The translations under genes were made by a program, and so were the position numbers. Below, piece after piece: positions 2,026 to 64,000 of a stretch of DNA of 64,000 nucleotides. Origin of the DNA: a virus; the IMG/VR virus record IMGVR_UViG_3300005841_000032, positions 32,001 to 96,000 of that record; one strand, given 5' to 3'. The notes under the pieces are model-generated. The model was not told where the DNA came from and ran no database searches. It saw only the letters and a program-made list of their open reading frames with translations. Numbering within the stretch: the first letter of the stretch is position 1; every line of letters starts with the position of its first letter.

Positions 2026-2246
2026 AATTCAGGCGCTTCAAGTGGTTGCCATGCAATAGGTTTTGAGTTACCGCGACCCCACCCACTATCGTCTTGTCCC
2101 CAATTATAATGCTTCCCGCCAGAATAACCATAGTCAACAACTGATTCAAGCCAACCAAATTCATATCTTTTATTACCCATATACATAAGAATCTTTTCGC
2201 CTATGTTAGGTAACTGGTCTTCTGGTTTTATCCAAAGGTTTTTCAT
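2022..2246 (-). CDS. small phage protein, DUF551-like
   Basis: WIKPEDQLP...IAWQPLEAP pattern. Confidence 0.6.
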   Translation of the reverse strand: MKNLWIKPEDQLPNIGEKILMYMGNKRYEFGWLESVVDYGYSGGKHYNWGQDDSGWGRGNSKPIAWQPLEAPEL

Positions 2247-4698
2247 CTGACTTTAATGGTTTATTCCTGATTATTTGTTTTTTCTCAACGTCCCAAAATT
2301 TCTTATTAGTTTCTGCTACATCTATAAATCTACCTTTAGCTACATCTTGCGCAATAGAGAATGTTGATTGCCAACTTTCAATCCTATAATGTCGCTTCTT
2401 TTCAATATGAAGTCTCATTACACTATTGTCATATTCATCCTCTGTTTGATTCAGAGTAAGCGCATAAGCAAATGGATCAAGTGTGGCTTTTAAATTTGAA
2501 ATATCATTTCTTGTTATTACCCAATTGGGATTATTCCAAAATTCTTTCTTTATATCGCTTGCCTGAGTTACCGCAGCTACTCCTATTTTAAATTCAGTAG
2601 CTATATTTATTATCTTTTCACTTGTTGCTTTTTTTCTTGTAGATGTTCCGTCCTGACCTGTGCTATATCTTTTACCGTCACCGGGGTCAAATCCCTCCAA
2701 AAGGTCAAATAGAACTAATCCTATCGGAGCTTCTTTTAACAAATCTATTAATATATTTCTACAATCCAAAATGGATGCGTTGTGAAATTGTTCAAATACA
2801 TGCACATAAATTTCACCTGCTTGCGCTAAATATGCTTGTTTGGCTTTTTCTATTTTTTTAATATCTGCTCCCGATAAATCACCTCTTCTAATATCATGTA
2901 CTTGCACCCCCGTCCACATTGCATCATATCCGTTTTCTATTTCTTCTTTAGTGCTATCGCCCGATGCAAGATGAAGGACTGGAATGCCTCTGAATGAAGC
3001 GTGAAAACCTAATGAGCGAAGCAAAGTTGTGTTATGAGTCACAATGCAATGGTCAGTTAAATAAAGACTCGTTGAATTATCCACTGCTATGCATTGCGTT
3101 TGCATTTTACCAACATATTCTATTTTATCTATAAATCTAGGCGTTAAATAGGATGTTTTAGGAACCACTCTTATTGCTTTTCTTTTTAAGAAGAATGGGT
3201 TAATTTCATTAGGTAAATTAATCATAACGTCATAAGCCAATCTCTTGGATATTCTTTTTTCACCCCTGTATGTATATTTTTTATATCCCCTGTTAACAAT
3301 GTGGCCGGTTCCACCTAATCCATTCACCAATTCTCTCACGTCTTCAGCTAATTTAAAGGAACTTGTATGAAATATTGAACAAGTTCCTTCTCCAGATAAA
3401 GAGCCATCAGTATCCATTAAGCCTCGTAATAAATTCACCCTATCATCTAATGATGAATATAAATAATTACATGGAATAAATTTATCGTATGAATGAATCT
3501 CTCTACCAAATAATTTCCTTAACCTACTTCCCAATTTGCAATAAGATAATCTATAGCTACATTTATCTATATGAATAGGCTTTATTTGCAGTTCATTTCC
3601 AACTCTTTCCAATATTTCTTTATCAATTGTGCTTATAGTTGGCGTTTCAAAAAAATGTCCATCTCCAATAAGCGCCCCCATAGTATATGGAGGTATTGGT
3701 AATTCTTTTTTATTAAAATTAATTGGTTTACAAATTGGCAGTTTATAATTCAAAACATTTTCGCGATCCCTGCACATGAAAATTCTTTCTTTTCCAATCA
3801 TTTCTTTCGTATTCAAGATAGTGTGTCTATCTGGGTCAATAAAGGTGGATGCATATCTCTTAGAGTCGGCTACTCTTTTTCTATCATTAGCTGTATACAC
3901 TTTCCATAAATGATTTTCATCACAATCTACGTATACCCCATCTGAAAAATGAATTCTGTATACATCTCTAATACCTTGAGGGAAAACACCAATAACTTTT
4001 ATCGTTTCACCTTTTTCAGATAAAACGCTATCTCCAACTTTTATTTCACCCATAGTGGTAAATCCATCAGGTGTATAAATTTTAGAATATAATGGTTGGG
4101 CTTTACCGCTTCCAGAACGAGCTACTACCAATAATCCTGTCCCGGCGTCAATCCCCCCGTGGGTTAAATGATCAAATGCTGGTAACCCCGTTGGTATCTT
4201 TGTTGTGCTGAAATCTCTATTCTGTCTTTCGTATTGCCGTTTATCGAATTGCTCATAAATTTTACTATACTGTTTTCGCTTTAATGAAAACTCATGCAAT
4301 TCTTTGTAACCATCTTTTGCTTCCACGTAGGCTTTATCGTACTCACCTCTCGCAAATAATTCCTCTGAACCTTTATGTAATTCAATAAACTTTGCGCGTC
4401 TTATATACTCTTCAAATGTTTCAAGTATGGTATCTTTCTTATCATATATATTGCATTCAGCAATCTTAGCAATAATACTAGTCGCGTCACGTGAATTAAC
4501 ATGTTGACTTATTAACCCAACTGTTGGCGTTTTATTATTTGCACTATGAAAATCAAAGATATATTTAAATATCTGTTTTTCAGGCTCGCTATTCAAATAC
4601 GAATATTGCAAATGAGCTTTAACAATCTCTAAAATGTTTTTAGAAACTATACAAGATTTTGCAAGTTCTATTATAAACTCACTATTTAACTGACTCAA
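2206..4698 (-). CDS. dnaB: replicative DnaB-like (SF4) helicase containing an intein
   Basis: IPTGLPAFD, Walker A ARSGSGK|T interrupted by an intein, LVLFDLLE Walker B, AVTQ motif. Confidence 0.85.
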   Translation of the reverse strand: MSQLNSEFIIELAKSCIVSKNILEIVKAHLQYSYLNSEPEKQIFKYIFDFHSANNKTPTVGLISQHVNSRDATSIIAKIAECNIYDKKDTILETFEEYIRRAKFIELHKGSEELFARGEYDKAYVEAKDGYKELHEFSLKRKQYSKIYEQFDKRQYERQNRDFSTTKIPTGLPAFDHLTHGGIDAGTGLLVVARSGSGKAQPLYSKIYTPDGFTTMGEIKVGDSVLSEKGETIKVIGVFPQGIRDVYRIHFSDGVYVDCDENHLWKVYTANDRKRVADSKRYASTFIDPDRHTILNTKEMIGKERIFMCRDRENVLNYKLPICKPINFNKKELPIPPYTMGALIGDGHFFETPTISTIDKEILERVGNELQIKPIHIDKCSYRLSYCKLGSRLRKLFGREIHSYDKFIPCNYLYSSLDDRVNLLRGLMDTDGSLSGEGTCSIFHTSSFKLAEDVRELVNGLGGTGHIVNRGYKKYTYRGEKRISKRLAYDVMINLPNEINPFFLKRKAIRVVPKTSYLTPRFIDKIEYVGKMQTQCIAVDNSTSLYLTDHCIVTHNTTLLRSLGFHASFRGIPVLHLASGDSTKEEIENGYDAMWTGVQVHDIRRGDLSGADIKKIEKAKQAYLAQAGEIYVHVFEQFHNASILDCRNILIDLLKEAPIGLVLFDLLEGFDPGDGKRYSTGQDGTSTRKKATSEKIINIATEFKIGVAAVTQASDIKKEFWNNPNWVITRNDISNLKATLDPFAYALTLNQTEDEYDNSVMRLHIEKKRHYRIESWQSTFSIAQDVAKGRFIDVAETNKKFWDVEKKQIIRNKPLKSDEKPLDKTRRPVT
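3031..4101 (-). mobile_element. class 3 intein (357 aa) with LAGLIDADG homing endonuclease
   Basis: Starts AQPLYSKI (Ala1), block B CDENHLW, block F TQCIAVD, ends VTHN|T; MGALIGDG and LLRGLMDTDG LAGLIDADG motifs. Confidence 0.9.
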
Positions 4699-6649: not shown

Positions 6650-7234
6650 TTAATCGTAAGCAATATGTAGTTCTATATTTTCCTTAGTTGCCAAGCTCAA
6701 AGTATGGTCAATATATATACTTTGAAACTGTTCGTCGGATAAATTATCACATTCTGATACTTCGCTTCTAATTTCTCTGGAAATAACTAGAGCATAATAT
6801 TGACCAGCTGGAAGATCGGGCAAGAAAATAGCATTAACTTCAGTATCGGCCTCCACCAATGTAACCGAAAAAGGCTTCGATCCTATCGTTGGCAATTTTT
6901 CCTCTGTTACTAAATCTCCACATGAATCTGCAATAACGGGTAATCCAGCTATTTTAAATATGCAAAATTGTTGATCGATTACGTCCGATTCATCTGAAAA
7001 TATTTGGTCAAACCACGCACGCACATTTGTGCGATCGGCATTTGAATTATTGTATAAGGCAATGATCAAATAAGTGGGCTTTTTATTTTGTTTCCCAAAT
7101 TCACTTACGCTATCAAAAATGGCATTTAAATAATCGTTGGGAACTGGAGTGCTAGAAATATAGCCGCCAAGCGATTTATAAGCAAATTTTTGTTGCGCCT
7201 GAAATGTTGCTGCTCCTGTATAATATAAAATCAT
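6650..7234 (-). CDS. probable virion structural protein
   Basis: 194-aa beta-rich ORF (SLGGYISSTPVPN) at the end of the tail module. Confidence 0.5.
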   Translation of the reverse strand: MILYYTGAATFQAQQKFAYKSLGGYISSTPVPNDYLNAIFDSVSEFGKQNKKPTYLIIALYNNSNADRTNVRAWFDQIFSDESDVIDQQFCIFKIAGLPVIADSCGDLVTEEKLPTIGSKPFSVTLVEADTEVNAIFLPDLPAGQYYALVISREIRSEVSECDNLSDEQFQSIYIDHTLSLATKENIELHIAYD

Positions 7235-34859: not shown

Positions 34860-36368
34860 CTAAGCTGCAACGAAAGGTCCAATGTTAATATAGCGAACCA
34901 TCTTCTTCTGAGCCACCAATACAGGAGTTCCCCATTGGTAAACCATGAAATTATTTGCTGGCCCGGTAATGCCAAAATCTAGACGACTGATAGGCCCCAG
35001 TTGCTTAAAATAGTTGACCTCTTCTTGCATAGCTTCAATGAAACCATTTTCAGTATCTGGTAAGAACCTATTACGATCCCTAACTACTCCTGCTGCTGCT
35101 CCATCATAACCTTGTGTCAATTGAGCCGCACTTACTTTGAAGATAGGATAAAATTCTACCTGACTTGTAGCTGCATTTGTTACAGTCGAGATCTTCGAAC
35201 GATACACTACATAATGGCTAGGAGTAAATGTACCCGCGCCCGCTGTCCAGCTTAAATCTACCGATTGACCTGCTGTCAATGTCACTTTATTAGTATCTCC
35301 ACCTAAAATTCTAACTGGGCTTTCACCATATTGATTTGCTGCTGATACTCCATAGAACACTGTTCCAAGTGCGCCCGTATGAGCTTCACCTGCTGCAAAA
35401 CGAGACTTGCCATCTGTGCCAGTCAATGCTGCGCTTACTGAAACTGGAGTTGCAGGAGCCTTACCGCTAGTTGCCGAATCTGTTGCCAGACGGAAACCGG
35501 GAGTCTTCATAAACAAATCTTGTTTCAATGCTACTTCACCGAAAGTAGTATCAACTGCTTTAGGATTGCTACCAGCTACGCCACGATAACCACTTGATCC
35601 TAAAAGAATCCTTTGACGCTCATAGTAATCTTTTGCAAAACCTGCAAGTACTGTAGGGGGAGCATAGAAAGTATCTACTGTCCCGAATGCTGCATAAATG
35701 TTCTGTGAACCATCTTCAAAATCTTGTTGACGAATACTTGCGCCACGAAGGTCAATTACTGCTGGGCTATCTTGCCATGCATCCAAAGTAGGATACAAAT
35801 CTCCTGAGCTTGCACCAATGCGGGCGTGTTGAGCAAACAAGCTATTGAATTCAAGTGAATTCATGTTGCTGTCTGCTTTAGTCAATGAGTTAGCAGTCTT
35901 GCGAACAACCCACATTGTTTTGTTCTTTACTTCTTGTGCCATTGCATCGACATAAGAACGAACTTTTTGAGCTTGAAGAGTTACGCTACCCATGATCTGG
36001 ATATACTTAACCAATTCAGCTCTACGTCTGTAAACAGAATCTTCAAGGTCAGGCGTTTCACCCTCTGCATAAAATCCGCCACGATCGAAACCATACGATT
36101 CAAGCTGAATATATTCTTCAACTGTGTTCATTGCATCCAGTTTAGGAATATCATAGTACAGTTTTACCTGTTCCATTTTGAAATCTAAAAGACGCAATGT
36201 CTTTTCAAGAGATTCTACTTTAAGCGGCTCTTGTGTTAAAGCAAGATCATTGGTATCACGACCTGTGATATTGCCAGCTTGCATAGCTTTAATAAGTTCA
36301 CTCACTTCCGATTGACTAGCGAATGCACCGCCCAATTCTGTTTCTTGATAATGATTAAGTTCGACCAT
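34860..36368 (-). CDS. major capsid protein
   Basis: 502 aa after protease and scaffold; LIK|AMQAG, ESLEKTL, EFNSL. Confidence 0.85.
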   Translation of the reverse strand: MVELNHYQETELGGAFASQSEVSELIKAMQAGNITGRDTNDLALTQEPLKVESLEKTLRLLDFKMEQVKLYYDIPKLDAMNTVEEYIQLESYGFDRGGFYAEGETPDLEDSVYRRRAELVKYIQIMGSVTLQAQKVRSYVDAMAQEVKNKTMWVVRKTANSLTKADSNMNSLEFNSLFAQHARIGASSGDLYPTLDAWQDSPAVIDLRGASIRQQDFEDGSQNIYAAFGTVDTFYAPPTVLAGFAKDYYERQRILLGSSGYRGVAGSNPKAVDTTFGEVALKQDLFMKTPGFRLATDSATSGKAPATPVSVSAALTGTDGKSRFAAGEAHTGALGTVFYGVSAANQYGESPVRILGGDTNKVTLTAGQSVDLSWTAGAGTFTPSHYVVYRSKISTVTNAATSQVEFYPIFKVSAAQLTQGYDGAAAGVVRDRNRFLPDTENGFIEAMQEEVNYFKQLGPISRLDFGITGPANNFMVYQWGTPVLVAQKKMVRYINIGPFVAA

Positions 36369-55207: not shown

Positions 55208-55818
55208 TGTCCTTTCAATCCGTTATTTCCCGTTCTAACTACTACTATTGGTTCGAACTTCAAAGTTAATACTTTTTCTACATCTTTTATCCATCTATAA
55301 TCTGCTGCCTTATACCCATCCCAATTAGCTATATTATTTTTACTATGATGCAAAAATAAACAAGGTGCGCCTATTTTACCTTTAACTATCTTTTTATTTT
55401 CTATAAAATCTTGTGGTGGTTTTGGTCTGCCTTTCCGCAACATCTGACAAATTACTCCTTCTTCTGGATTTGTTAACTTTGTCGAGATCGTCTCAAGGGA
55501 AAGACGGCTAAATAGAAAATCATCGTTGTCCAGAAATAAAAACCAGCCTTCGTTAACTAAATTCTTTAATTGATTAGAATAAAGATTCCAATAGAAGGGG
55601 TAATTCCTGTCTATCTCGGCATCGATTATCCTAACATTAAAAGAATCATTCTCTGTCTGTTTTTCAGCATCTTTCCTTGCTTCTTCTGAATCACAGCAAA
55701 TTATAACATTTAAATTTTTTACTATTGTTTGTTCTCTGACCGAATGTAAACAACGTCCCAATAATTCAGGACGATATTTATTGCGAATGAGAACGTTTAT
55801 TAGGGGCTGACCGATCAT
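55204..55818 (-). CDS. GT2 glycosyltransferase
   Basis: INVLIR, SVREQT, FLFLDNDD, ADYRW. Confidence 0.8.
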   Translation of the reverse strand: MIGQPLINVLIRNKYRPELLGRCLHSVREQTIVKNLNVIICCDSEEARKDAEKQTENDSFNVRIIDAEIDRNYPFYWNLYSNQLKNLVNEGWFLFLDNDDFLFSRLSLETISTKLTNPEEGVICQMLRKGRPKPPQDFIENKKIVKGKIGAPCLFLHHSKNNIANWDGYKAADYRWIKDVEKVLTLKFEPIVVVRTGNNGLKGQ

Positions 55819-56288
55819 TTCAATACCAATTCAGACTCTTTAACTAATTTGGTATTAAATCGTTCTATTACCAATTCAGCAGTAAATTTACTGCCGCCTT
55901 TTCCAGTACATGACTTAGAACAATATGGCCCCGCTTTACCTCTTTTTCTTTCAGTTAATACCCAATGTGCCTTTTCTCCTTCCCTGATAACATCTTTGTC
56001 GCAAACAGGACATATAAAGCCTACCATTAATCTTTCAGCGTCTTGCAAAACATGAGTCAATCTATCTACAATTCTTAAATTACTTAATTCATCATTAGTA
56101 AAATCTTGATCTATATGATCAATAGTTTCATTGCCCATCAATTTTCTACCAATATGATGTTCAACTAGAAATTTTGGATAGCTAACAGTTGTGCGCTTCC
56201 CATTATTATCGATGCAAATATGCTTACGTCCATCCTTTCTTAAATAAGGCCCATTTATATGGCCTGTATATAAATTACTTTTAATCAT
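55815..56288 (-). CDS. HNH homing endonuclease with C-terminal Zn finger
   Basis: IDHIDQDFTNDELSNL; CPVC...YCSKSC. Confidence 0.8.
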   Translation of the reverse strand: MIKSNLYTGHINGPYLRKDGRKHICIDNNGKRTTVSYPKFLVEHHIGRKLMGNETIDHIDQDFTNDELSNLRIVDRLTHVLQDAERLMVGFICPVCDKDVIREGEKAHWVLTERKRGKAGPYCSKSCTGKGGSKFTAELVIERFNTKLVKESELVLK

Positions 56289-56292
56289 ATTG

Positions 56293-56379
56293 TGCCCCGG
56301 GAAAGAATTGAACTTTCACGATCATTACTGATCACAGAATTTTAAGTTCTGCTTGTACTACCATTTTCAACACCGGGGC
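56293..56379 (-). tRNA. tRNA-Leu(TAA)
   Basis: GCCCCGG acceptor, CAGAA-CTTAAAA-TTCTG anticodon arm, long variable arm, GTTCAATTC T-loop. Confidence 0.88.
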
Positions 56380-56493
56380 AAAAATAAACAAAGAAGCTCT
56401 ACTCTGTTGGTCTTTTTACAAGGGCTGGAATGTGACACCTTTTCTCTGTTTAAATACAGACGCGCTCTCTGTTATACATGCGTAATTAAGAAG

Positions 56494-56567
56494 TAGCGGG
56501 AGCCAGACTCGAACTGGCGCATAAAAGCTTATGAGGCTTTCCTTCTACCAACTGAAAGTATCCCGCG
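56494..56567 (-). tRNA. tRNA-Met(CAT), initiator-like acceptor stem
   Basis: CGCGGGA...TCCCGCT-A with a 1:72 mismatch, AAAGC-CTCATAA-GCTTT, GTTCGAGTC. Confidence 0.85.
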
Positions 56568-56797
56568 ATGTAAAAAAACAAGTGACTGTATGTTTCTAAC
56601 TAATTTGGTTAGATGCCATTAACCCTACAGGTAGGTAATTGCCTATTGACAATATTTTCGCACCACTTGTTTTATTTTTCATATTTCAAAATTAATCTAA
56701 AATATCATTCCAACAAAATAAACTATACAATAAGCTAAAATTCCTCCAGTTGAAATAGTAAAAATGGGCAATAGTGTTTCCCATGTATTTTCTATAG

Positions 56798-57130
56798 CTA
56801 CCATTCTTCTATGCTTGGCTCTGGCTTTAAGTGAGTATGTTTTTCGTTTTTGCATATTGTAGAGATTATCGTTGTTTCTCTCTTATCTAAGTCATTAATA
56901 AAAATTATCAACCCCGTATCAGTATTTTCAAACCAAACTGAATAAAGATCATCTTTACTGCCATTACTTAATACTAAATATTGCTTATTTCTTTTCTCTA
57001 ATTTCAAATGCAAATCAATCGATTGAGATATAATATGTAATGAATCTTTATCTGCAAATAATCCTACTCTTTCATATTTGCATTGCTGTCCATTTCCTAA
57101 AACTACATATAGCCAAAGAATAAATCGCAT
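56798..57130 (-). CDS. hypothetical protein
   Basis: 110-aa ORF between tRNAs. Confidence 0.5.
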   Translation of the reverse strand: MRFILWLYVVLGNGQQCKYERVGLFADKDSLHIISQSIDLHLKLEKRNKQYLVLSNGSKDDLYSVWFENTDTGLIIFINDLDKRETTIISTICKNEKHTHLKPEPSIEEW

Positions 57131-57140
57131 TCAATTTTTG

Positions 57141-57215
57141 AGCCCGTGGATGGAATCGAACCACCGACCTGTTGCTTACAAGGCAAACGCTCTAACCTAC
57201 TGAGCTACATCGGGC
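57141..57215 (-). tRNA. tRNA-Thr(TGT)
   Basis: TAGCTCAGTAGGTTAGAGC D-arm, CTTGTAA anticodon loop, GGTTCGATTCC. Confidence 0.85.
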
Positions 57216-57368
57216 AATACACTGATTCTTTCTGTTTTAATTCCGTCAAATATAACTTCTACTTTCTTCAATTCAAACTTCTTTTCTTCAACTGCTTTCT
57301 TTTTCTTCACTTCTTCTTTGAAGAATTGCGGAATGATTCGTGTTTGCTGTTCTTGTTTCATGTTTGAA

Positions 57369-58325
57369 TTATTTAAAAATACCATATTTGCGACTTAAAT
57401 TTATACCATTACAATGACTTATCCAGCCATTATACGCGGCTACCGAATACTCATTCCTATTACTCTTAATCATTCGTTTAAAGTTCTCTTTTATACTTTT
57501 ACGCAACAAAGAATAGTCAGGGAATATTTTATAACCTAAGAAATCGATTCCTCTATCTTTTACCGGAAACACTTGATAATTATTCTTTATTTCCAATTTC
57601 AAATTATCCCATAAATACACTTGAATATCTTCTCGCAGGTTATGAAGCCAATGTTTATCGTGATGCAGTATTAAAATGTCGTCACAATATCTAAACAAAT
57701 ATTTTACCCGTCTATCTTCTTTCAACCAATGATCAAAATATGTAAGGTAAAAATTAGCAAATAGGCCACTCAGGTAATTGCCTATCGGTAAGCCCGTTCC
57801 GCTATCTATAATTTCATCTAATAGCCATAATAGCTTTCCATCTTTAAATTTTCGTCTCAGCAATTGTTTAAGTATTTCATTTGAGACATTTGGAAAGTAT
57901 TTCTTAATATCCAATTTTAATGCATACTTGGTTTCTTCTTTATTCCATAAAGCCGCTTTAACATCATAATATCCTCGATGAATTCCTCTACCAACAACGC
58001 AACTATACGTATTAGCTATAAATGATTTAGTTAGAATATCACCTATAACATTAACTATTGCATGATGACAGATACGATCCGGATAATATGGAAGACGCGC
58101 TATATCTCTTGCCTTTGGCTCATAAATAGTGAAGTAAGAATATTCAGAAGTTTTATAAGTCATTTCTTTTAAACTTCGCTGCAAATCCTTAATATTCTCA
58201 TCTTCTTGCTTTCGATGTTCAATTACATCTCTATTCCATTTCTTCCCACGACTCGCATTTTTATCCGCCAACTTAAGATTATCTAAATCATAAATTTGCT
58301 CATATAAATTGCCAACTCTCTTCAT
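57369..58325 (-). CDS. DGR reverse transcriptase
   Basis: 318 aa; MKRVGNLYE, YPDRICHHA, KLDIKKYF, GLPIGNYLSG, RYCDD, IDFLGY; adjacent TR/VR pair. Confidence 0.93.
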   Translation of the reverse strand: MKRVGNLYEQIYDLDNLKLADKNASRGKKWNRDVIEHRKQEDENIKDLQRSLKEMTYKTSEYSYFTIYEPKARDIARLPYYPDRICHHAIVNVIGDILTKSFIANTYSCVVGRGIHRGYYDVKAALWNKEETKYALKLDIKKYFPNVSNEILKQLLRRKFKDGKLLWLLDEIIDSGTGLPIGNYLSGLFANFYLTYFDHWLKEDRRVKYLFRYCDDILILHHDKHWLHNLREDIQVYLWDNLKLEIKNNYQVFPVKDRGIDFLGYKIFPDYSLLRKSIKENFKRMIKSNRNEYSVAAYNGWISHCNGINLSRKYGIFK

Positions 58326-58438
58326 TTCTCTAAATAAAAGTCTCTTTCAATTACTTACTAAAGACTTTCCTTCTTACTTGATCTTTTGCCTAAGGGCAAG
58401 GTTGACACATATTTAAATAGGTAGGGAAAATTTTTAGA

Positions 58439-58509
58439 GTTAGCCTCGCCTCCATATTCGAGTTGTAGTTCCAATTATTCGCATTAGAATTCAGCACTCA
58501 ACTAGAAGA
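58439..58509 (-). repeat. DGR template repeat (TR)
   Basis: 71-nt ungapped match to 58604-58674; all 19 mismatches are at TR adenines; rich in AAT/AAC triplets. Confidence 0.95.
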
Positions 58510-58527
58510 AACATTCTATGTGTAACG

Positions 58528-59103
58528 CTAAGCGGAAAGATAATCTTCATAAATATCTTTAAATTGTTTACCAGCATACAAAGCTGTTCTTTCATCCCTA
58601 TATGAAAGCCCCGCCCCCAAAACCGAGTCGTAGTACCAAACACCCGCAACAGAAACCAGCACCCAACCAGAAGATTTTTTTTCGAACCAAGGGTACCACT
58701 TTGATTGAGATGAATTTTTATAGTCTTCCGTCCAGCCTTCATTAAGAACTTCTGCAATCAACTGAATTTTCGCAGCAGCATTCAATGCTTTTTGCTTCTT
58801 ATTTTTTGGATTATTGAATGGAACAACATTCTCTTCCTCTTCACCTGCTAATTCAAGAATATCTTTCCATTTCAAATCACGATCAGTCAATGTGACTGAT
58901 TTAAAAACATCAAAATACTTTTTCAGCATTTCTTTCTGTGTTTCATTAGCATCGTTAAATGCTTTCTTGATCAAAGTTTCTTCTACCTCAATCGTATCGC
59001 CTGACTGCCATAAAGCAAGTTCAGTGATTTTCTTTTGCCAATCTTGACATACTTGTCCGTAAATTGTTTGCAAATCTTTTCGTGAAATTTTCTGTGCTTT
59101 CAT
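58528..59103 (-). CDS. DGR target protein (191 aa)
   Basis: Contains the VR encoding SSGWVLVSVAGVWYYDSVLGAGLS. Confidence 0.9.
   Translation of the reverse strand: MKAQKISRKDLQTIYGQVCQDWQKKITELALWQSGDTIEVEETLIKKAFNDANETQKEMLKKYFDVFKSVTLTDRDLKWKDILELAGEEEENVVPFNNPKNKKQKALNAAAKIQLIAEVLNEGWTEDYKNSSQSKWYPWFEKKSSGWVLVSVAGVWYYDSVLGAGLSYRDERTALYAGKQFKDIYEDYLSA
58604..58674 (-). repeat. DGR variable repeat (VR)
   Basis: Adenine-specific divergence from TR (11 A>G, 8 A>T). Confidence 0.95.
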
Positions 59104-60637: not shown

Positions 60638-60784
60638 ATGAAAACAACTTACAACGTAATGGTGCAAAAATTTACACCTTCAAACACAAAATCATTTAAA
60701 GGCTTCAATGTCACTATTCAAGACAAAATAAAGATTGAAGCGAAAAATCTCAAAAAGCTTCGCAAGTTTCTTGCCACTCTTTAA
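60638..60784 (+). CDS. 48-aa basic protein (absent from the ORF track)
   Basis: MKTTYNVMVQKF...KFLATL; TAGGTTTG element at 60603-60610 and an A-rich leader. Confidence 0.5.
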   Translation: MKTTYNVMVQKFTPSNTKSFKGFNVTIQDKIKIEAKNLKKLRKFLATL

Positions 60785-61743
60785 ACCAAAAAATCTTGAC
60801 CGTTAAACTTCACCAATACCTTTGGTCTGTTTGATGTTTTAGGTTTGCTCTTATCTGTTTCAAATGAGGTTCCGTTCCATACGGAACCTTCTTTATATTC
60901 TACCGCCAAACATCGACACCTCGGATGTATTGCGACTAAAGTACTTTTCCAGTCTTTTTGTTTCCTCCCGATGTTGCTTCCATTTGCCTCTAATTCTTTT
61001 AGTGTAAATATCTTTGGCTCACTTCCTTCTCCGCCTGTCAGGTAAAGCTTTACGCAACTTGGGCAAGCTGACGGTTGGACTCTGAACCACACTTTTGCTT
61101 TCTCGTTATCTCCGTCATTCTTTCTAAGCACCATTGCAGCCCTTCCTTCATTTAATGCAGTATGAGAGATATATTCTACCGACTTTCTGAAATCTCTACT
61201 CCAATCGCCCGTAAGACGTCCTATTTGCCTTGCTATCTCTTTCTTGCTTTTCCGATCTCCCGTTCCAGTTGCCATTTGATCCTTTAAATACTCTTCCTGA
61301 TTTGCCCTTGCGTTCCCAAATTGGTTACTGACTACATTGTTCACGTCTTTGAATATGCGCTCGTTTGCCAATCTTATATCGGACATTGATTGCATCTTTA
61401 TACTATTGATCGTTGCCCTTTCTCTTGCATTCAAGGGAATGTATGCGCTGGAAGTCACATAATCTTTTAATTGATTAAATGTAATATTTTGAACTTGTTT
61501 TTCTGATAAAATTTTAGAAAGCAATCCAAGATGAAAGTTCAATTCTACTAAATCCTTACTTTCATCGTAAAGCTTATCGGCGTTTATTCCATTGTCCTTT
61601 AAAACCTGCTTTTCTCCATCTGAAAGATAGTCCCCGCCCAATGTGGTTGCGCTGAATAAAGCTGTTTGCCTCTGAATGAGAGCCAGTATAGTTTGTACTT
61701 GTTGTGGAGATAACATTCTTTCATCCTCTGGTAAGTAATCCAA
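60781..61743 (-). CDS. head morphogenesis protein (SPP1 gp7 / Mu F-like)
   Basis: ACPSC...IHPRCRC; downstream of the portal. Confidence 0.75.
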   Translation of the reverse strand: MDYLPEDERMLSPQQVQTILALIQRQTALFSATTLGGDYLSDGEKQVLKDNGINADKLYDESKDLVELNFHLGLLSKILSEKQVQNITFNQLKDYVTSSAYIPLNARERATINSIKMQSMSDIRLANERIFKDVNNVVSNQFGNARANQEEYLKDQMATGTGDRKSKKEIARQIGRLTGDWSRDFRKSVEYISHTALNEGRAAMVLRKNDGDNEKAKVWFRVQPSACPSCVKLYLTGGEGSEPKIFTLKELEANGSNIGRKQKDWKSTLVAIHPRCRCLAVEYKEGSVWNGTSFETDKSKPKTSNRPKVLVKFNGQDFLV

Positions 61744-62435: not shown

Positions 62436-62820
62436 CTCTTCTTATAAAGAAGTTCACTGCCTCAATTCCAAAGGCTCCAGTTAACGTCCCAAATACAAAT
62501 ATCTCTCTTACTTGAACAGCGTAAAATACTTCAAGTAATCCAAATAAAACAAATAATTTAATGCACCACGCCGTAGAATAATGGATCAGCATTGAATTAA
62601 AATCTTCTTTATTAAATTTATTATCGCTATCCTCTATACCGTCCTTTAACCATTTTCTAAAACTTGGAACAAACATAAATCCCAACTCAGGCAAAAATAG
62701 CATAAAGCAAAAAATAGGGAATAGAAAATGATAATCTATTCCTGCTAATGCCATTGACGCAAAGGCGGCAACGAAGCGCAATGAAAACATATACCCCAAA
62801 ACAGAAATTATCTTTATCAT
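62422..62820 (-). CDS. multi-pass membrane protein (holin-like candidate)
   Basis: About 4 hydrophobic segments, basic C-terminus. Confidence 0.5.
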   Translation of the reverse strand: MIKIISVLGYMFSLRFVAAFASMALAGIDYHFLFPIFCFMLFLPELGFMFVPSFRKWLKDGIEDSDNKFNKEDFNSMLIHYSTAWCIKLFVLFGLLEVFYAVQVREIFVFGTLTGAFGIEAVNFFIRRGEKK

Positions 62821-64000
62821 TCTACGTTTACATATTTAGCTTCAAAAAATTCATCAAATGCTTTTTGAAATGGACTTTCCTCTTCCATTAAAAATGGATT
62901 TGTATTTGATTGTCTTTCTTCTTCTTTTTGTGAGTCTTGCTGATCTTGTTCTTGTTGCCCTTGCATTTCCATTTGCTGTTGCTGCATAAACAATGGATTC
63001 AAGGGAAGGTCGGCGGCTTTAGATTTAAGCGGTTTTAATTTTTTCCCAGCCCTTATCTCATTGGGAGTTAAATAAACAGTTGCAGCCTTTAATAGTCTTT
63101 CTTCTTCTTCAGATGCACTTTCAACCTCTAATCCAGCAAACTGGAATTCAAATTGTCTATTAGTAAGAGGGAAAATTATAAACTCATTAATCCAAGTCTG
63201 CATATAAGTCAATAAGGGTTTCAATCCCTTATTAATCGAATAATCTTTTTCCTGTTTACCTCCCTCCTTACTTCCCATTCCACCCTGCCTTGTACCTTGC
63301 AATGGGAAACCTATTTCTTCCGGCGATATTGTGTATACTGCACAGGCTAACTTAATCATCAGTTCATAGAATGCAGAATATTCCATGTCTCTATTGGTTT
63401 TCTGCATGTCAACCCAATCAACATTTTCAGCATCCAAAATCAAAGTTTTGCCGTTATTTTCAGCACCTGCGATCATTGCTTGCCAGTCGCGTCTTATTTG
63501 TTGTATGGCATCAGCCTGTATATTGCCTTTCTTTACAAACAAAGCTCCTTTTGGAGAGGAACCAGTTTTGAATATTGATCCATTATAACGATCTGCATTC
63601 AATAGATTAGTTACAGTAGTTATTAATATTTCTAATTCACTTGTCCCATATCCATTTGAATAAATACTTGTTGTTGGATTTCTTAATCCATAGCATAATT
63701 CCCAAGGATAAAATTCTGCTTTAATTAACCCATCTATTACTTGAACATATTTGGGCAAGTATCCATTTACTCTTGTTCTTTCATGTTTATTTACATCGTT
63801 ATTTGCCGTATCTGCAAACCTTACTGTTGCTCCATCTACTGCAACAAACATAGATGGCTTACCCATCCTTGTAGGTATTACCTCAAATGCAGCAAAGTCA
63901 CCTACCAAAGAATCAGTAAGTACTTTTTTGCCAAACGTATCGAAATTATCTAAATCCCAAATGTTCTCTTCGTTACCGCAATTATTAATAAAATTGGTAA
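62817..64000 (-). CDS. portal protein (5' end outside the window)
   Basis: Frame open to the window edge; GYGTSELE, PKGAL, DMEYS, ISPEEIGF, GLKPLL, TPNEIR. Confidence 0.9.
   Translation of the reverse strand, partial: TNFINNCGNEENIWDLDNFDTFGKKVLTDSLVGDFAAFEVIPTRMGKPSMFVAVDGATVRFADTANNDVNKHERTRVNGYLPKYVQVIDGLIKAEFYPWELCYGLRNPTTSIYSNGYGTSELEILITTVTNLLNADRYNGSIFKTGSSPKGALFVKKGNIQADAIQQIRRDWQAMIAGAENNGKTLILDAENVDWVDMQKTNRDMEYSAFYELMIKLACAVYTISPEEIGFPLQGTRQGGMGSKEGGKQEKDYSINKGLKPLLTYMQTWINEFIIFPLTNRQFEFQFAGLEVESASEEEERLLKAATVYLTPNEIRAGKKLKPLKSKAADLPLNPLFMQQQQMEMQGQQEQDQQDSQKEEERQSNTNPFLMEEESPFQKAFDEFFEAKYVNVE

Follow-up and report, generated by a model that had tools for sequence, protein, structure and literature searches.

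In the DGR of Bordetella phage BPP-1, which is arranged as mtd-avd-TR-brt, it has been demonstrated that cDNA copied with misincorporation at adenines replaces the VR of the target gene. According to Wu 2018 (PMC5758913), 29% of DGRs are without accessory genes, one whole lineage is Avd-less, and Lineage 3A is confined to Bacteroides and relatives. For phages, the literature holds that DGRs typically act on tail proteins (PMC8144416, PMC12636319). Non-structural phage DGR targets near counter-defence genes have been described by Benler 2021 (PMC8008677), who also reports C-lectin domains in both Quimbyvirus targets, and in a 2025 Nature study of temperate gut phages (PMC12629997). In bacteria, DGR-diversified putative antigen sensors are known (PMC10907252). 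Avd-less DGRs and non-structural phage targets are, in other words, already known, and the premise of the original prediction for the locus described here, that phage DGRs need Avd and act on tail proteins, is outdated.

The locus lies in a stretch of viral DNA of 64,000 nucleotides, below called the window, which is part of a genome of 110,427 bp that is 100% complete by CheckV. All its elements are on the minus strand. The target gene (58528-59103) encodes an acidic, soluble protein of 191 aa with a pI of 5.5 that matches phrog_11581 (E 5.7e-15). Comparison of repeats places a VR of 71 nt at 58604-58674, that is codons 144-167 of the target, and a TR of equal length at 58439-58509. A spacer of 113 nt (58326-58438) separates the TR from the RT gene (57369-58325), whose product is a basic protein of 318 aa with a pI of 9.4. 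Our re-analysis confirmed the coordinates of the original prediction, and the compact cassette without avd that it described stands, with its 191-aa target, 71-nt TR and 318-aa RT and with no match to PF05635 or TIGR02436.

The two repeats agree at 52 positions and differ at 19, and all 19 differences fall on adenines of the TR. As adenine makes up 31% of the TR, the probability of this is by our own arithmetic about 2e-10. Eleven of the changes are A>G and eight are A>T, while three of the 22 TR adenines are unaltered. We considered whether such a near-saturating, C-free spectrum is an anomaly and rejected the idea: in the class as a whole 70% of the adenines are changed on average, and A>C makes up 14% of the changes. 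Given these averages, zero A>C in 19 changes has a probability of about 0.06. When the TR is read in the frame of the VR (our own codon reading), it contains seven AAY codons and an in-frame TGA at codon 4. In-frame TR stops occur in 14 of 105 pairs from relatives, at the constant 3' end and never at the position of the window's TGA; at this constant end the relatives' TR differs from all VRs alike, as in IMH/IMH*. Near the 3' end of the window's VR there is a 7-bp AT-rich inverted repeat (58589-58608). In DGRs of the BPP-1 type a hairpin or cruciform is expected just 3' of the VR. As a signal of the present class such a hairpin does not stand out, being present in 8 of 97 relatives versus 6 of 97 control segments.

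The RT matches RVT_1 (E 7.6e-14) and phrog_1423 (E 1e-115), has YCDD at residue 213 and shares 48-58% identity with the RTs encoded by 59 related cassettes that have A-only TR/VR pairs; against models of group II introns, retrons and Drt it scores far under their cut-offs. In DGR RTs, motif 4 is expected to read [ILV]GxxxSQ. Here it is LPIGNYLSG and not the IGNYLSQ of the clade, with YCDD and the other positions of the motif intact. We consider it almost certain that the element is a real DGR of an Avd-less class with small targets.

The locus resembles BPP-1 in several ways. Information flows from TR to VR in the same adenine-specific manner, the VR occupies the 3' part of the target gene, the TR is rich in AAY codons and directly precedes the gene for an RT of about 320 aa, and the spacer that separates the two is structured. 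It also differs from BPP-1: Avd is missing, the target is not a fibre protein of the tail and gives no detectable match to Mtd or to a C-type lectin, and the RT has SG where BPP-1 has SQ. Further, the VR stops short of the C-terminus, by 24 residues in our count (about 25 in the original prediction), so any cis signals have to lie inside the coding sequence.

The spacer is a structured RNA, as judged from strong covariation in an alignment of 47 spacers. All 11 of the predicted pairs show compensatory changes, 94% of the cells are paired versus 69% after shuffling, and the covariation score is 0.71 versus 0.23, a level that was attained by none of 500 shuffles. In relatives the spacer measures 92-119 nt. 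The structure is kept in the window, where the spacer's own centroid fold retains both hairpins, one at 58399-58386 (UUGCC-CUUA-GGCAA) and one at 58368-58337, both on the minus strand.

Related cassettes are abundant. The order target(s)-TR-RT was found in 59 of the 80 best IMG/VR loci and in 53 of 78 bacterial loci, among which are 105 unique TR/VR pairs with changes at A only, and a typical cassette consists of one to three small targets, the TR, the RT and a conserved basic ORF of about 100 aa. In the window, too, a target of the phrog_11581 family lies directly upstream of the TR. The class is very large and barely described, and the element studied here is no oddity. It resembles Architecture A and Lineage 3/3A of Wu 2018, with a target upstream of a TR-RT core and none of the genes avd, HRDC and MSL, and the host range of Lineage 3A agrees with the Bacteroidota range that we find. 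Unlike the Avd-less DGRs of that study, most relatives here have the basic ORF downstream of the RT. By its description, the CH1 accessory of Wu 2018, an acidic protein of 160-169 aa, resembles our target family in size and charge.

No match to PF05635 and TIGR02436, the families of the four-helix-bundle protein Avd, was found at E<=10 in the whole 110,427-bp genome, nor was there an Avd match in four related contigs or in the complete genome of BI-TP1, a cultured Bacteroides phage. The genome-wide scan also returned a single VR. Both outcomes bear on the search for avd and remote VRs that the original prediction proposed: neither was found in the complete genome. The basic ORF of most relatives (phrog_19665) overlaps the stop codon of the RT and was found in about 50 of the 59 viral loci and in 41 of the 53 bacterial ones. 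It is not in the window's genome, where the best hit of the accessory HMM has E 0.64, and three tRNA genes and an HNH gene occupy its expected site. A 62-aa ORF (57197-57385, minus strand) from the ORF list does overlap the RT stop codon. However, it matches neither the accessory HMM nor any family, and since its sequence is unrelated to the accessory and it runs into tRNA-Thr it is probably not a component of the cassette. The flanking ORFs of 62, 72 and 150 aa were rejected as accessory candidates, as they have no homologue in 160 related loci. In agreement with the earlier observation that no flanking ORF looks like Avd, the small ORFs around the cassette match no Pfam, PHROG, NCBIfam or PADLOC family.

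The copy in the window is therefore a divergent, minimal variant: it has a single target with an extra N-terminal domain, is accessory-free, and its RT has SG for SQ. This raises the question of whether it is a decaying or inactive relic, silenced by a divergent RT and the loss of its partner of about 100 aa, with a VR that only records past mutagenesis. The Q of IGNYLSQ, which 57 of 59 relatives share, is a G in the window's RT, and this RT deviates at 12 of the 103 columns that are conserved in at least 95% of relatives, while the median of relatives is 1. The genome-wide lack of the accessory ORF and the tRNA and HNH genes in its place point the same way. Yet there is not one non-adenine mismatch between TR and VR over 71 nt, the ORFs of target and RT are both intact, and the spacer hairpins are retained. 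About ten other RT-bearing loci are likewise without the accessory. Further, one other divergent RT (L039) deviates to a similar degree and still has a clean TR/VR pair, so the divergence of the window's RT may simply mean a deep branch. We regard decay as unlikely; the DGR is probably active now or was so recently, as far as this can be read from the repeats and reading frames.

The target consists of an N-terminal extension (about residues 1-66) followed by a conserved domain of about 125 aa that bears the VR. Up to about 15 codons, within residues 146-167, are open to rewriting. In AlphaFold models (pLDDT 86 and 88; domain model pLDDT 88, pTM 0.84) the VR spans the second strand of a beta-hairpin and the next loop, with low pLDDT in loop residues 159-164, and two helices come after it. 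The original prediction had asked whether this is a C-type lectin fold. The model is confident (pLDDT 88), but no PDB match was obtained: structure searches with the full-length and the domain model gave at best a VIA-align wide Z of 4.2 and a Foldseek E of 2, and a profile search of PDB sequences gave nothing under E 0.07. Matches in BFVD and the ESM Atlas are to uncharacterised phage proteins only. With the C-type-lectin-fold proteins Mtd, TvpA and TaqVP the target has in common that a compact, conserved scaffold carries a hypervariable beta-hairpin and loop, and that the VR ends in a motif of the G-S/F-R-L type, which is also present in the tail target of BI-TP1; it differs in matching no PDB chain and in the two helices after the VR.

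Family searches gave a similar picture. The target matches no Pfam, NCBIfam or PADLOC family, including the FGE-sulfatase, DUF1566 and Mtd models of Pfam, and a hit to TNP-like_GBD (E 0.025) was under the cut-off and disregarded. Tentaclins (PMC10743442) were also set aside, as their topology is another one, with Ig domains after a C-lectin domain at the N-terminus. The target family, phrog_11581, comprises about 5,500 clusters at 50% identity, is without annotation and comes nearly exclusively from Bacteroidota phages and prophages. Its proteins stand alone, with about 150-165 aa, or are tandem duplicates; no fusion was found among the 150 best hits or in a "Rosetta stone" search at 402-2000 aa, the latter being weak evidence. 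The closest homologues (P0002 and P0003) are 51% identical and share the N-terminal extension, and the only near-identical record (P0001) ends just short of the VR. Elsewhere in the family, near-identical homologues differ at VR-equivalent positions only. A hypervariable surface on a conserved scaffold is the only recognisable trait of the family.

A tblastn search of 50,697 phage records with the window's target found nothing, and the cultured Bacteroides phages BI-TP1 and Versailles as well as LoVEphage were reached only with a more typical family member as query. That member (P0044) is 36% identical to gp84 of BI-TP1 over 99% of its length (E 3e-20). The gp84 gene has a VR of 113 nt with 15 A-only changes relative to an RT-adjacent TR about 56 kb away. 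In BI-TP1, then, the family member is a second, distant target of a DGR that acts on a tail fibre: a tail protein of the Mtd_N type draws on the same TR, and the ends of the two VRs share VGSRL. By homology, the target in the window belongs to the same family as the published non-structural target of Quimby-like phages. The second target of Quimbyvirus and LoVEphage-like phages is alike in protein family and, for gp84, in its A-only VR and distant TR; gp84 also has methyltransferases and a tRNA ligase as neighbours, which matches the published Quimbyvirus setting. There, the protein is a remote extra target with a VR of 113 nt, whereas in the window it is the sole target, has its own adjacent TR and RT, a 71-nt VR and an added N-terminal domain, and resides in a 110-kb myovirus-like genome.

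Where the target acts is a separate matter. Like classical DGR targets, it could be a virion-associated variable adhesin, that is a small decoration or accessory receptor-binding protein that docks on capsid or tail by its conserved N-terminal helix and diversifies the binding of host or mucus. The lack of a signal peptide, noted in the original prediction, holds in that there is neither a hydrophobic N-terminus nor a TM segment (the maximum KD19 of 1.38 is inside the VR). However, this is uninformative on a role in the virion, as virion proteins also do without signal peptides. The portal gene (62817-63998) lies 3.7 kb upstream of the cassette and the major head gene (34860-36368) lies downstream of it. 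All genes are on one strand and the cassette is co-oriented with both; its place between them is compatible with late expression too. An "early-type promoter" was not borne out: we count 16 sigma-70-like sites where 17.4 +/- 4.2 would be expected, and the target has no such site directly before it. An adhesin would also fit the TR that BI-TP1 shares with its tail protein, the VGSRL ends and the prevailing literature on tail targets. The Versailles homologue is annotated "tail protein" by one depositor, which has been counted for this reading as well.

Against an adhesin, the 25 commonest neighbours in 38 diverse related loci include no tail or head family. What these loci contain is exonuclease, Gp2.5-like SSB, primase, helicase, methyltransferases, RecT, integrase and Ant. 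The Versailles and BI-TP1 homologues are found amid genes for NinB, SbcC, a replisome organiser, methyltransferase and tRNA ligase, and the tail modules are a long way off. Further, tandem copies of the target, two or three of which are common in a cassette, are in some cases cut to about 125 aa and then lack the docking domain, and no fibre, Ig or collar domain was found in the target. In the window's genome the baseplate genes and large distal ORFs are at 8-17.7 kb, more than 40 kb from the cassette, as had been stated for the fibre genes. An adhesin is accordingly an unlikely reading, and that the target is a non-virion, intracellular binder is the best-supported one, favoured by a small measure over its being something else. 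It should be kept in mind that the support from the relatives' neighbours is guilt by association and hence indirect.

A binder inside the cell might also be a sensor of phage or prophage origin that acts in superinfection exclusion or defence, recognising the proteins of competing phages with a partner encoded elsewhere. The relatives are chiefly temperate elements with the cassette close to genes for integrase, anti-repressor and repressor, a region in which morons are found, and the bacterial antigen sensors mentioned above provide a precedent. In the relatives, however, an effector or NTPase domain is neither fused to the target nor consistently adjacent, PADLOC gives no hit, and in the window's phage, which has the look of a large myovirus of virulent type, there is no integrase close to the cassette. 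This makes a sensor quite improbable.

Taken together, the best explanation overall is an intact, recently active Avd-less DGR whose target is a cytoplasmic variable binder, to which we assign a probability of roughly 60%. A cytoplasmic binder is the likeliest role given the company of replication, recombination, lysogeny and methyltransferase genes in relatives and the lack of an effector or anchoring domain. By analogy with BPP-1 we infer the following steps of retrohoming: the TR and the structured 3' spacer would be transcribed, the RT would make cDNA from the TR RNA, misincorporating nucleotides opposite adenines, and this cDNA would take the place of the VR. The outcome would be a small stand-alone domain in which one beta-strand and the loop next to it are rewritten. 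The protein may then serve in conflicts between phage and host or between phages, for example as an adaptable inhibitor of, or decoy for, variable host proteins. Counting against this explanation are the change from SQ to SG in the RT with 11 other conserved columns altered, the missing ORF of about 100 aa that most relatives keep, and the fact that no partner, effector domain or known fold was found.

The intracellular binder of the original prediction thus gains from the relatives' neighbours as far as a non-virion role is concerned, while host takeover or anti-defence is a function that we infer. A role specifically in anti-defence appears possible but doubtful. Slightly more speculative still is the idea that phrog_11581 is a new non-lectin DGR scaffold, serving Bacteroidota phages as a cytoplasmic anti-defence "antibody" that is continuously re-randomised against variable host immunity proteins, and that the spacer RNA, mostly together with an SSB-like partner of about 100 aa, replaces Avd. 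If this were true, the element in the window would show that RT and RNA alone can suffice.

In general, in this element and the hundreds of related cassettes recovered with it, the only object of the DGR is a small protein whose gene lies among those for replication, recombination and lysogeny, whereas phage DGRs are still described in large surveys as typically diversifying tail proteins for host range (PMC8144416, PMC12636319). The class opens a route to the mechanism of Avd-independent retrohoming, by way of its conserved spacer RNA and of an accessory protein that is a candidate replacement, and the cultured relatives (BI-TP1, Versailles and LoVEphage-type) make these questions directly testable. 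If the protein is intracellular, DGRs would also be a general engine of phage counter-defence or of competition between phages, and the family would offer evolvable binders a compact scaffold of natural origin.

All genes in the part of the window with the diversity-generating retroelement (DGR) lie on the minus strand. The target ORF (59103..58528, -, 191 aa) contains one copy of a 71-nt repeat (58674..58604, -), and a second copy of 71 nt lies downstream (58509..58439, -). The two align without gaps, with 52 identities and 19 mismatches, and all 19 mismatches fall on adenines of the downstream copy (probability about 2e-10 by our arithmetic, A being 31% of this copy). Because the mismatches are confined to these adenines, the downstream copy is the template repeat (TR) and the copy in the ORF is the variable repeat (VR). 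Three of the 22 TR adenines are unchanged, while 11 are replaced by G and 8 by T. A 113-nt spacer (58326-58438, -) separates the TR from the start of the reverse transcriptase (RT; 58325..57369, -, 318 aa), which has a YCDD motif and matches RVT_1 (E 7.6e-14) and phrog_1423 (E 1e-115), and scores far below curated cut-offs against group II intron, retron and Drt models. The DGR is confirmed as originally predicted.

The window corresponds to bases 32001-96000 of a single virus record of 110,427 bp, rated complete by CheckV. When this whole record was scanned with the TR, leaving the A positions free, the only VR found was the one in the target, and HMM searches gave a single target gene and a single RT gene. 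The absence of non-A mismatches, the intact ORFs and the preserved RNA structure argue for recent activity of the element. Codon 4 of the TR is an in-frame TGA (58498-58500, -); at this position TGG (Trp147) stands in the VR and in the nearest homologues. Judging from the sequence, faithful copying of the TGA adenine into the VR would truncate the target. In relatives the in-frame stops of the TR are found at another site, in the constant 3' end. Public sequences include a single near-identical copy of the target, P0001 (99% identity; 134 aa, contig of 925 nt), and it breaks off just short of the VR. Such an end is what a hypervariable site that disrupts assembly would produce, but it is not evidence in itself.

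Related cassettes form a class. Of the 80 best IMG/VR loci, 59 have an RT that shares 48-58% identity with that of the window and lies 200-650 nt downstream of the target. The small targets number one to three per cassette, arranged in tandem and each having a VR of its own, and a single TR lies about 100 nt upstream of the RT. In their 105 unique TR/VR pairs 70% of the TR adenines are changed: 56% of the changes are A>G, 30% A>T and 14% A>C. Against this spectrum, the 19 of 22 changed adenines and the lack of A>C in the window, considered as a possible anomaly, are unremarkable (P ~0.06). The 3' end of a TR differs in the same way from all its VRs, e.g. SSHLC* in the TR and GSRLCF in the VR, which looks like an IMH/IMH*-like pair. 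The last four or five "mutations" in the window may therefore be fixed differences and not the result of mutagenesis.

The spacer is 92-119 nt long in the relatives and folds into two hairpins, both of which are present in the window (58326-58438, -). In an alignment of 47 cassettes all 11 predicted pairs show compensatory changes. Paired cells amount to 94%, compared with 69% in shuffles, and the covariation score is 0.71, compared with 0.23 in shuffles (none of 500 as high); sliding the partners gives at most 0.15. The RNA fits no family that we could put a name to. This spacer may parallel that of BPP-1, which primes cDNA synthesis.

The claim that the element has no Avd is borne out. PF05635 and TIGR02436 have no match at E≤10 across the complete 110,427-bp genome, and for the neighbouring small ORFs (62, 72, 150, 68, 72 and 75 aa) Pfam, PHROGs, NCBIfam and PADLOC all give no match, nor are there homologues among 160 related loci. 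The avd Pfam model also finds nothing in four related viral contigs or in the complete genome of BI-TP1, a Bacteroides phage with two clean VRs in its DGR. An Avd-less DGR is nothing new in principle: 29% of DGRs carry no accessory gene, and RT lineage 3 lacks avd, with sublineage 3A restricted to Bacteroides and relatives (Wu et al. 2018, PMC5758913).

Most related cassettes carry a basic ORF of about 100 aa (median pI 9.0), the start of which lies over the RT stop; it is present in about 50 of the 59 viral loci and 41 of the 53 bacterial ones. This ORF belongs to phrog_19665, without a Pfam match, and occurs in L025 (2590-2886, +), L028 (7076-7390, +), L029 (6696-7004, +) and about 90 other related loci. 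It has a weak ESM-Atlas lead to phi29-type SSB, and is a candidate replacement for Avd. In the divergent relative L039 the post-RT ORF (6676-7128, +) is not this accessory and, judged by eye, is apparently a further member of the target family.

The target belongs to PHROG 11581, an entry with no assigned function, and matches no Pfam or NCBIfam model. We found about 50 relatives in a protein collection clustered at 90%, more than 451 in IMG/VR and 141 in species-representative bacterial genomes. The latter are almost all from Bacteroidota (Chitinophagaceae, Flavobacteriales, Sphingobacteriales, Cytophagales and Bacteroidales); the others are two Ignavibacteria and isolated MAGs. Searched against 1.84 billion representatives, the family profile finds 5,482 clusters at E≤1e-3, of which 1,104 reach E≤1e-30. 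Among the top 150, nearly all proteins are 150-167 aa long or, where two domains stand in tandem, 250-300 aa; between 402 and 2000 aa no fused form came up, which is weak evidence. The conserved core is approximately ALNEGWxPDWxNxxQxKWYPWF, followed by a variable stretch and GSRLCFKSxELAxYAGKQFxDIY. In the near-identical members P0036-P0050 the differences are limited to the stretch equivalent to the VR. The target of the window has an additional N-terminal domain of about 66 residues, common only to its closest relatives P0002, P0003 and P0006.

AlphaFold2 yields confident models, with pLDDT 86 for the full-length target and pLDDT 88 and pTM 0.84 for the domain of residues 67-191. In the domain model two helices precede a long beta-hairpin, which is followed by a low-confidence loop and then by two C-terminal helices; residues 144-167, encoded by the VR, span the loop and the second strand of the hairpin. 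Since the A-bearing TR codons alternate along the strand (N-S-N-A-N-N), the variable side chains would lie on one face of it. The full-length and domain models match no solved structure by Foldseek (best E 0.56 and 2.0) and none of 48,161 chains by VIA-align (best Z 4.6 and 4.2), and in BFVD and ESM Atlas they match solely uncharacterised phage proteins, several from crAss-like phages. The target may or may not adopt a C-type-lectin fold. Both Quimbyvirus DGR targets are reported to have C-lectin domains (Benler et al. 2021, PMC8008677). The motif VGSRL at the VR end is common to our target and the Mtd_N-type tail target of BI-TP1.

Upstream of the cassette, at a distance of 3.7 kb, is the portal gene (62817-63998). 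Between them are a 320-aa ORF (60781-61743, -) that has CxxC and CRC motifs in its C-terminal part and matches no family of Pfam, PHROGs, NCBIfam or PADLOC, a weak terminator-like hairpin after it at about 60.77 kb (60774-60762), and several small ORFs in a row. Immediately after the RT come tRNA-Leu(TAA), tRNA-Met(CAT) and tRNA-Thr(TGT) (56292-57215, -), next to them an HNH endonuclease gene (55815-56288), and a GT2 glycosyltransferase gene; the genes for the major head and baseplate wedge proteins come much further on. A 62-aa ORF over the RT stop extends into tRNA-Thr. Elsewhere in the window, an 830-aa ORF (2206-4698, -) matches terminase-large-subunit PHROGs as well as those of DnaB-like helicase, helicase loader and primase, and these matches overlap in P-loop regions. 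The proposed early-type promoter finds no support: promoter-like sites are not enriched (16, with 17.4 +/- 4.2 expected) and none lies just upstream of the target, so the genome layout does not show "early" expression.

The comparative context is clearer than this layout. We compared 38 diverse cassettes by the two closest large ORFs to either side. These belong to PHROGs of exonuclease, Gp2.5-like SSB, primase, helicase, DNA methyltransferases, RecT, integrase, anti-repressor and Gam, and no structural family is among the 25 most frequent neighbours. The homologue in the Bacteroides phage Versailles has NinB/SbcC-type recombination genes on one side and a replisome organiser on the other; that in BI-TP1 (LoVEphage/Quimby-like) lies among methyltransferases, radical-SAM genes and a tRNA ligase. 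The BI-TP1 homologue gp84, annotated as hypothetical (PQ571265.1), has a remote 113-nt VR with 15 changes from the TR, all at A. This TR adjoins the RT and an Mtd_N tail protein about 56 kb away (sites at L082:6989-7573 and L083:6200-6800, two BI-TP1 loci), and thus one TR serves both a tail protein and a member of the small target family. Benler 2021 (PMC8008677) describes a matching arrangement, in which a second target is non-structural and embedded in defence-related genes, and four double-VR prophages of the 2025 Nature temperate-phage study (PMC12629997) match it as well.

The target could possibly be a virion decoration protein, or a superinfection-exclusion sensor. Most simply, it would be an intracellular variable inhibitor or decoy, as it appears to be a stand-alone binder, without effector or anchoring domain, among genes of DNA metabolism and counter-defence. 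The original interpretation of the element is supported in part, and was in part already published (Wu 2018 for Avd-less DGRs, Benler 2021 for a non-structural target).

Compared with the class, the window has a single target, an added N-terminal domain and a short VR. It lacks phrog_19665 (best E 0.64 in its genome), the RT being followed by tRNA-Thr, tRNA-Met, tRNA-Leu and the HNH gene. Further, it lies in a myovirus-like genome of 110 kb and not in a temperate phage of 30-70 kb. The RT reads LPIGNYLSG where 57 of 59 relatives have IGNYLSQ (Gly at residue 187, 57765-57767, -). By sequence it is an outlier, with 12 deviations at the 103 columns conserved in ≥95% of relatives (median 1); the RT of L039, likewise without the accessory, has 13. 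Within a widespread Avd-less DGR class devoted to a small non-tail target, the element represents a divergent and minimal variant. The features of this class, i.e. the size of the family, the targets in tandem, the ORF conserved after the RT and the covariation in the spacer RNA, are a more interesting result than the copy in the window itself.
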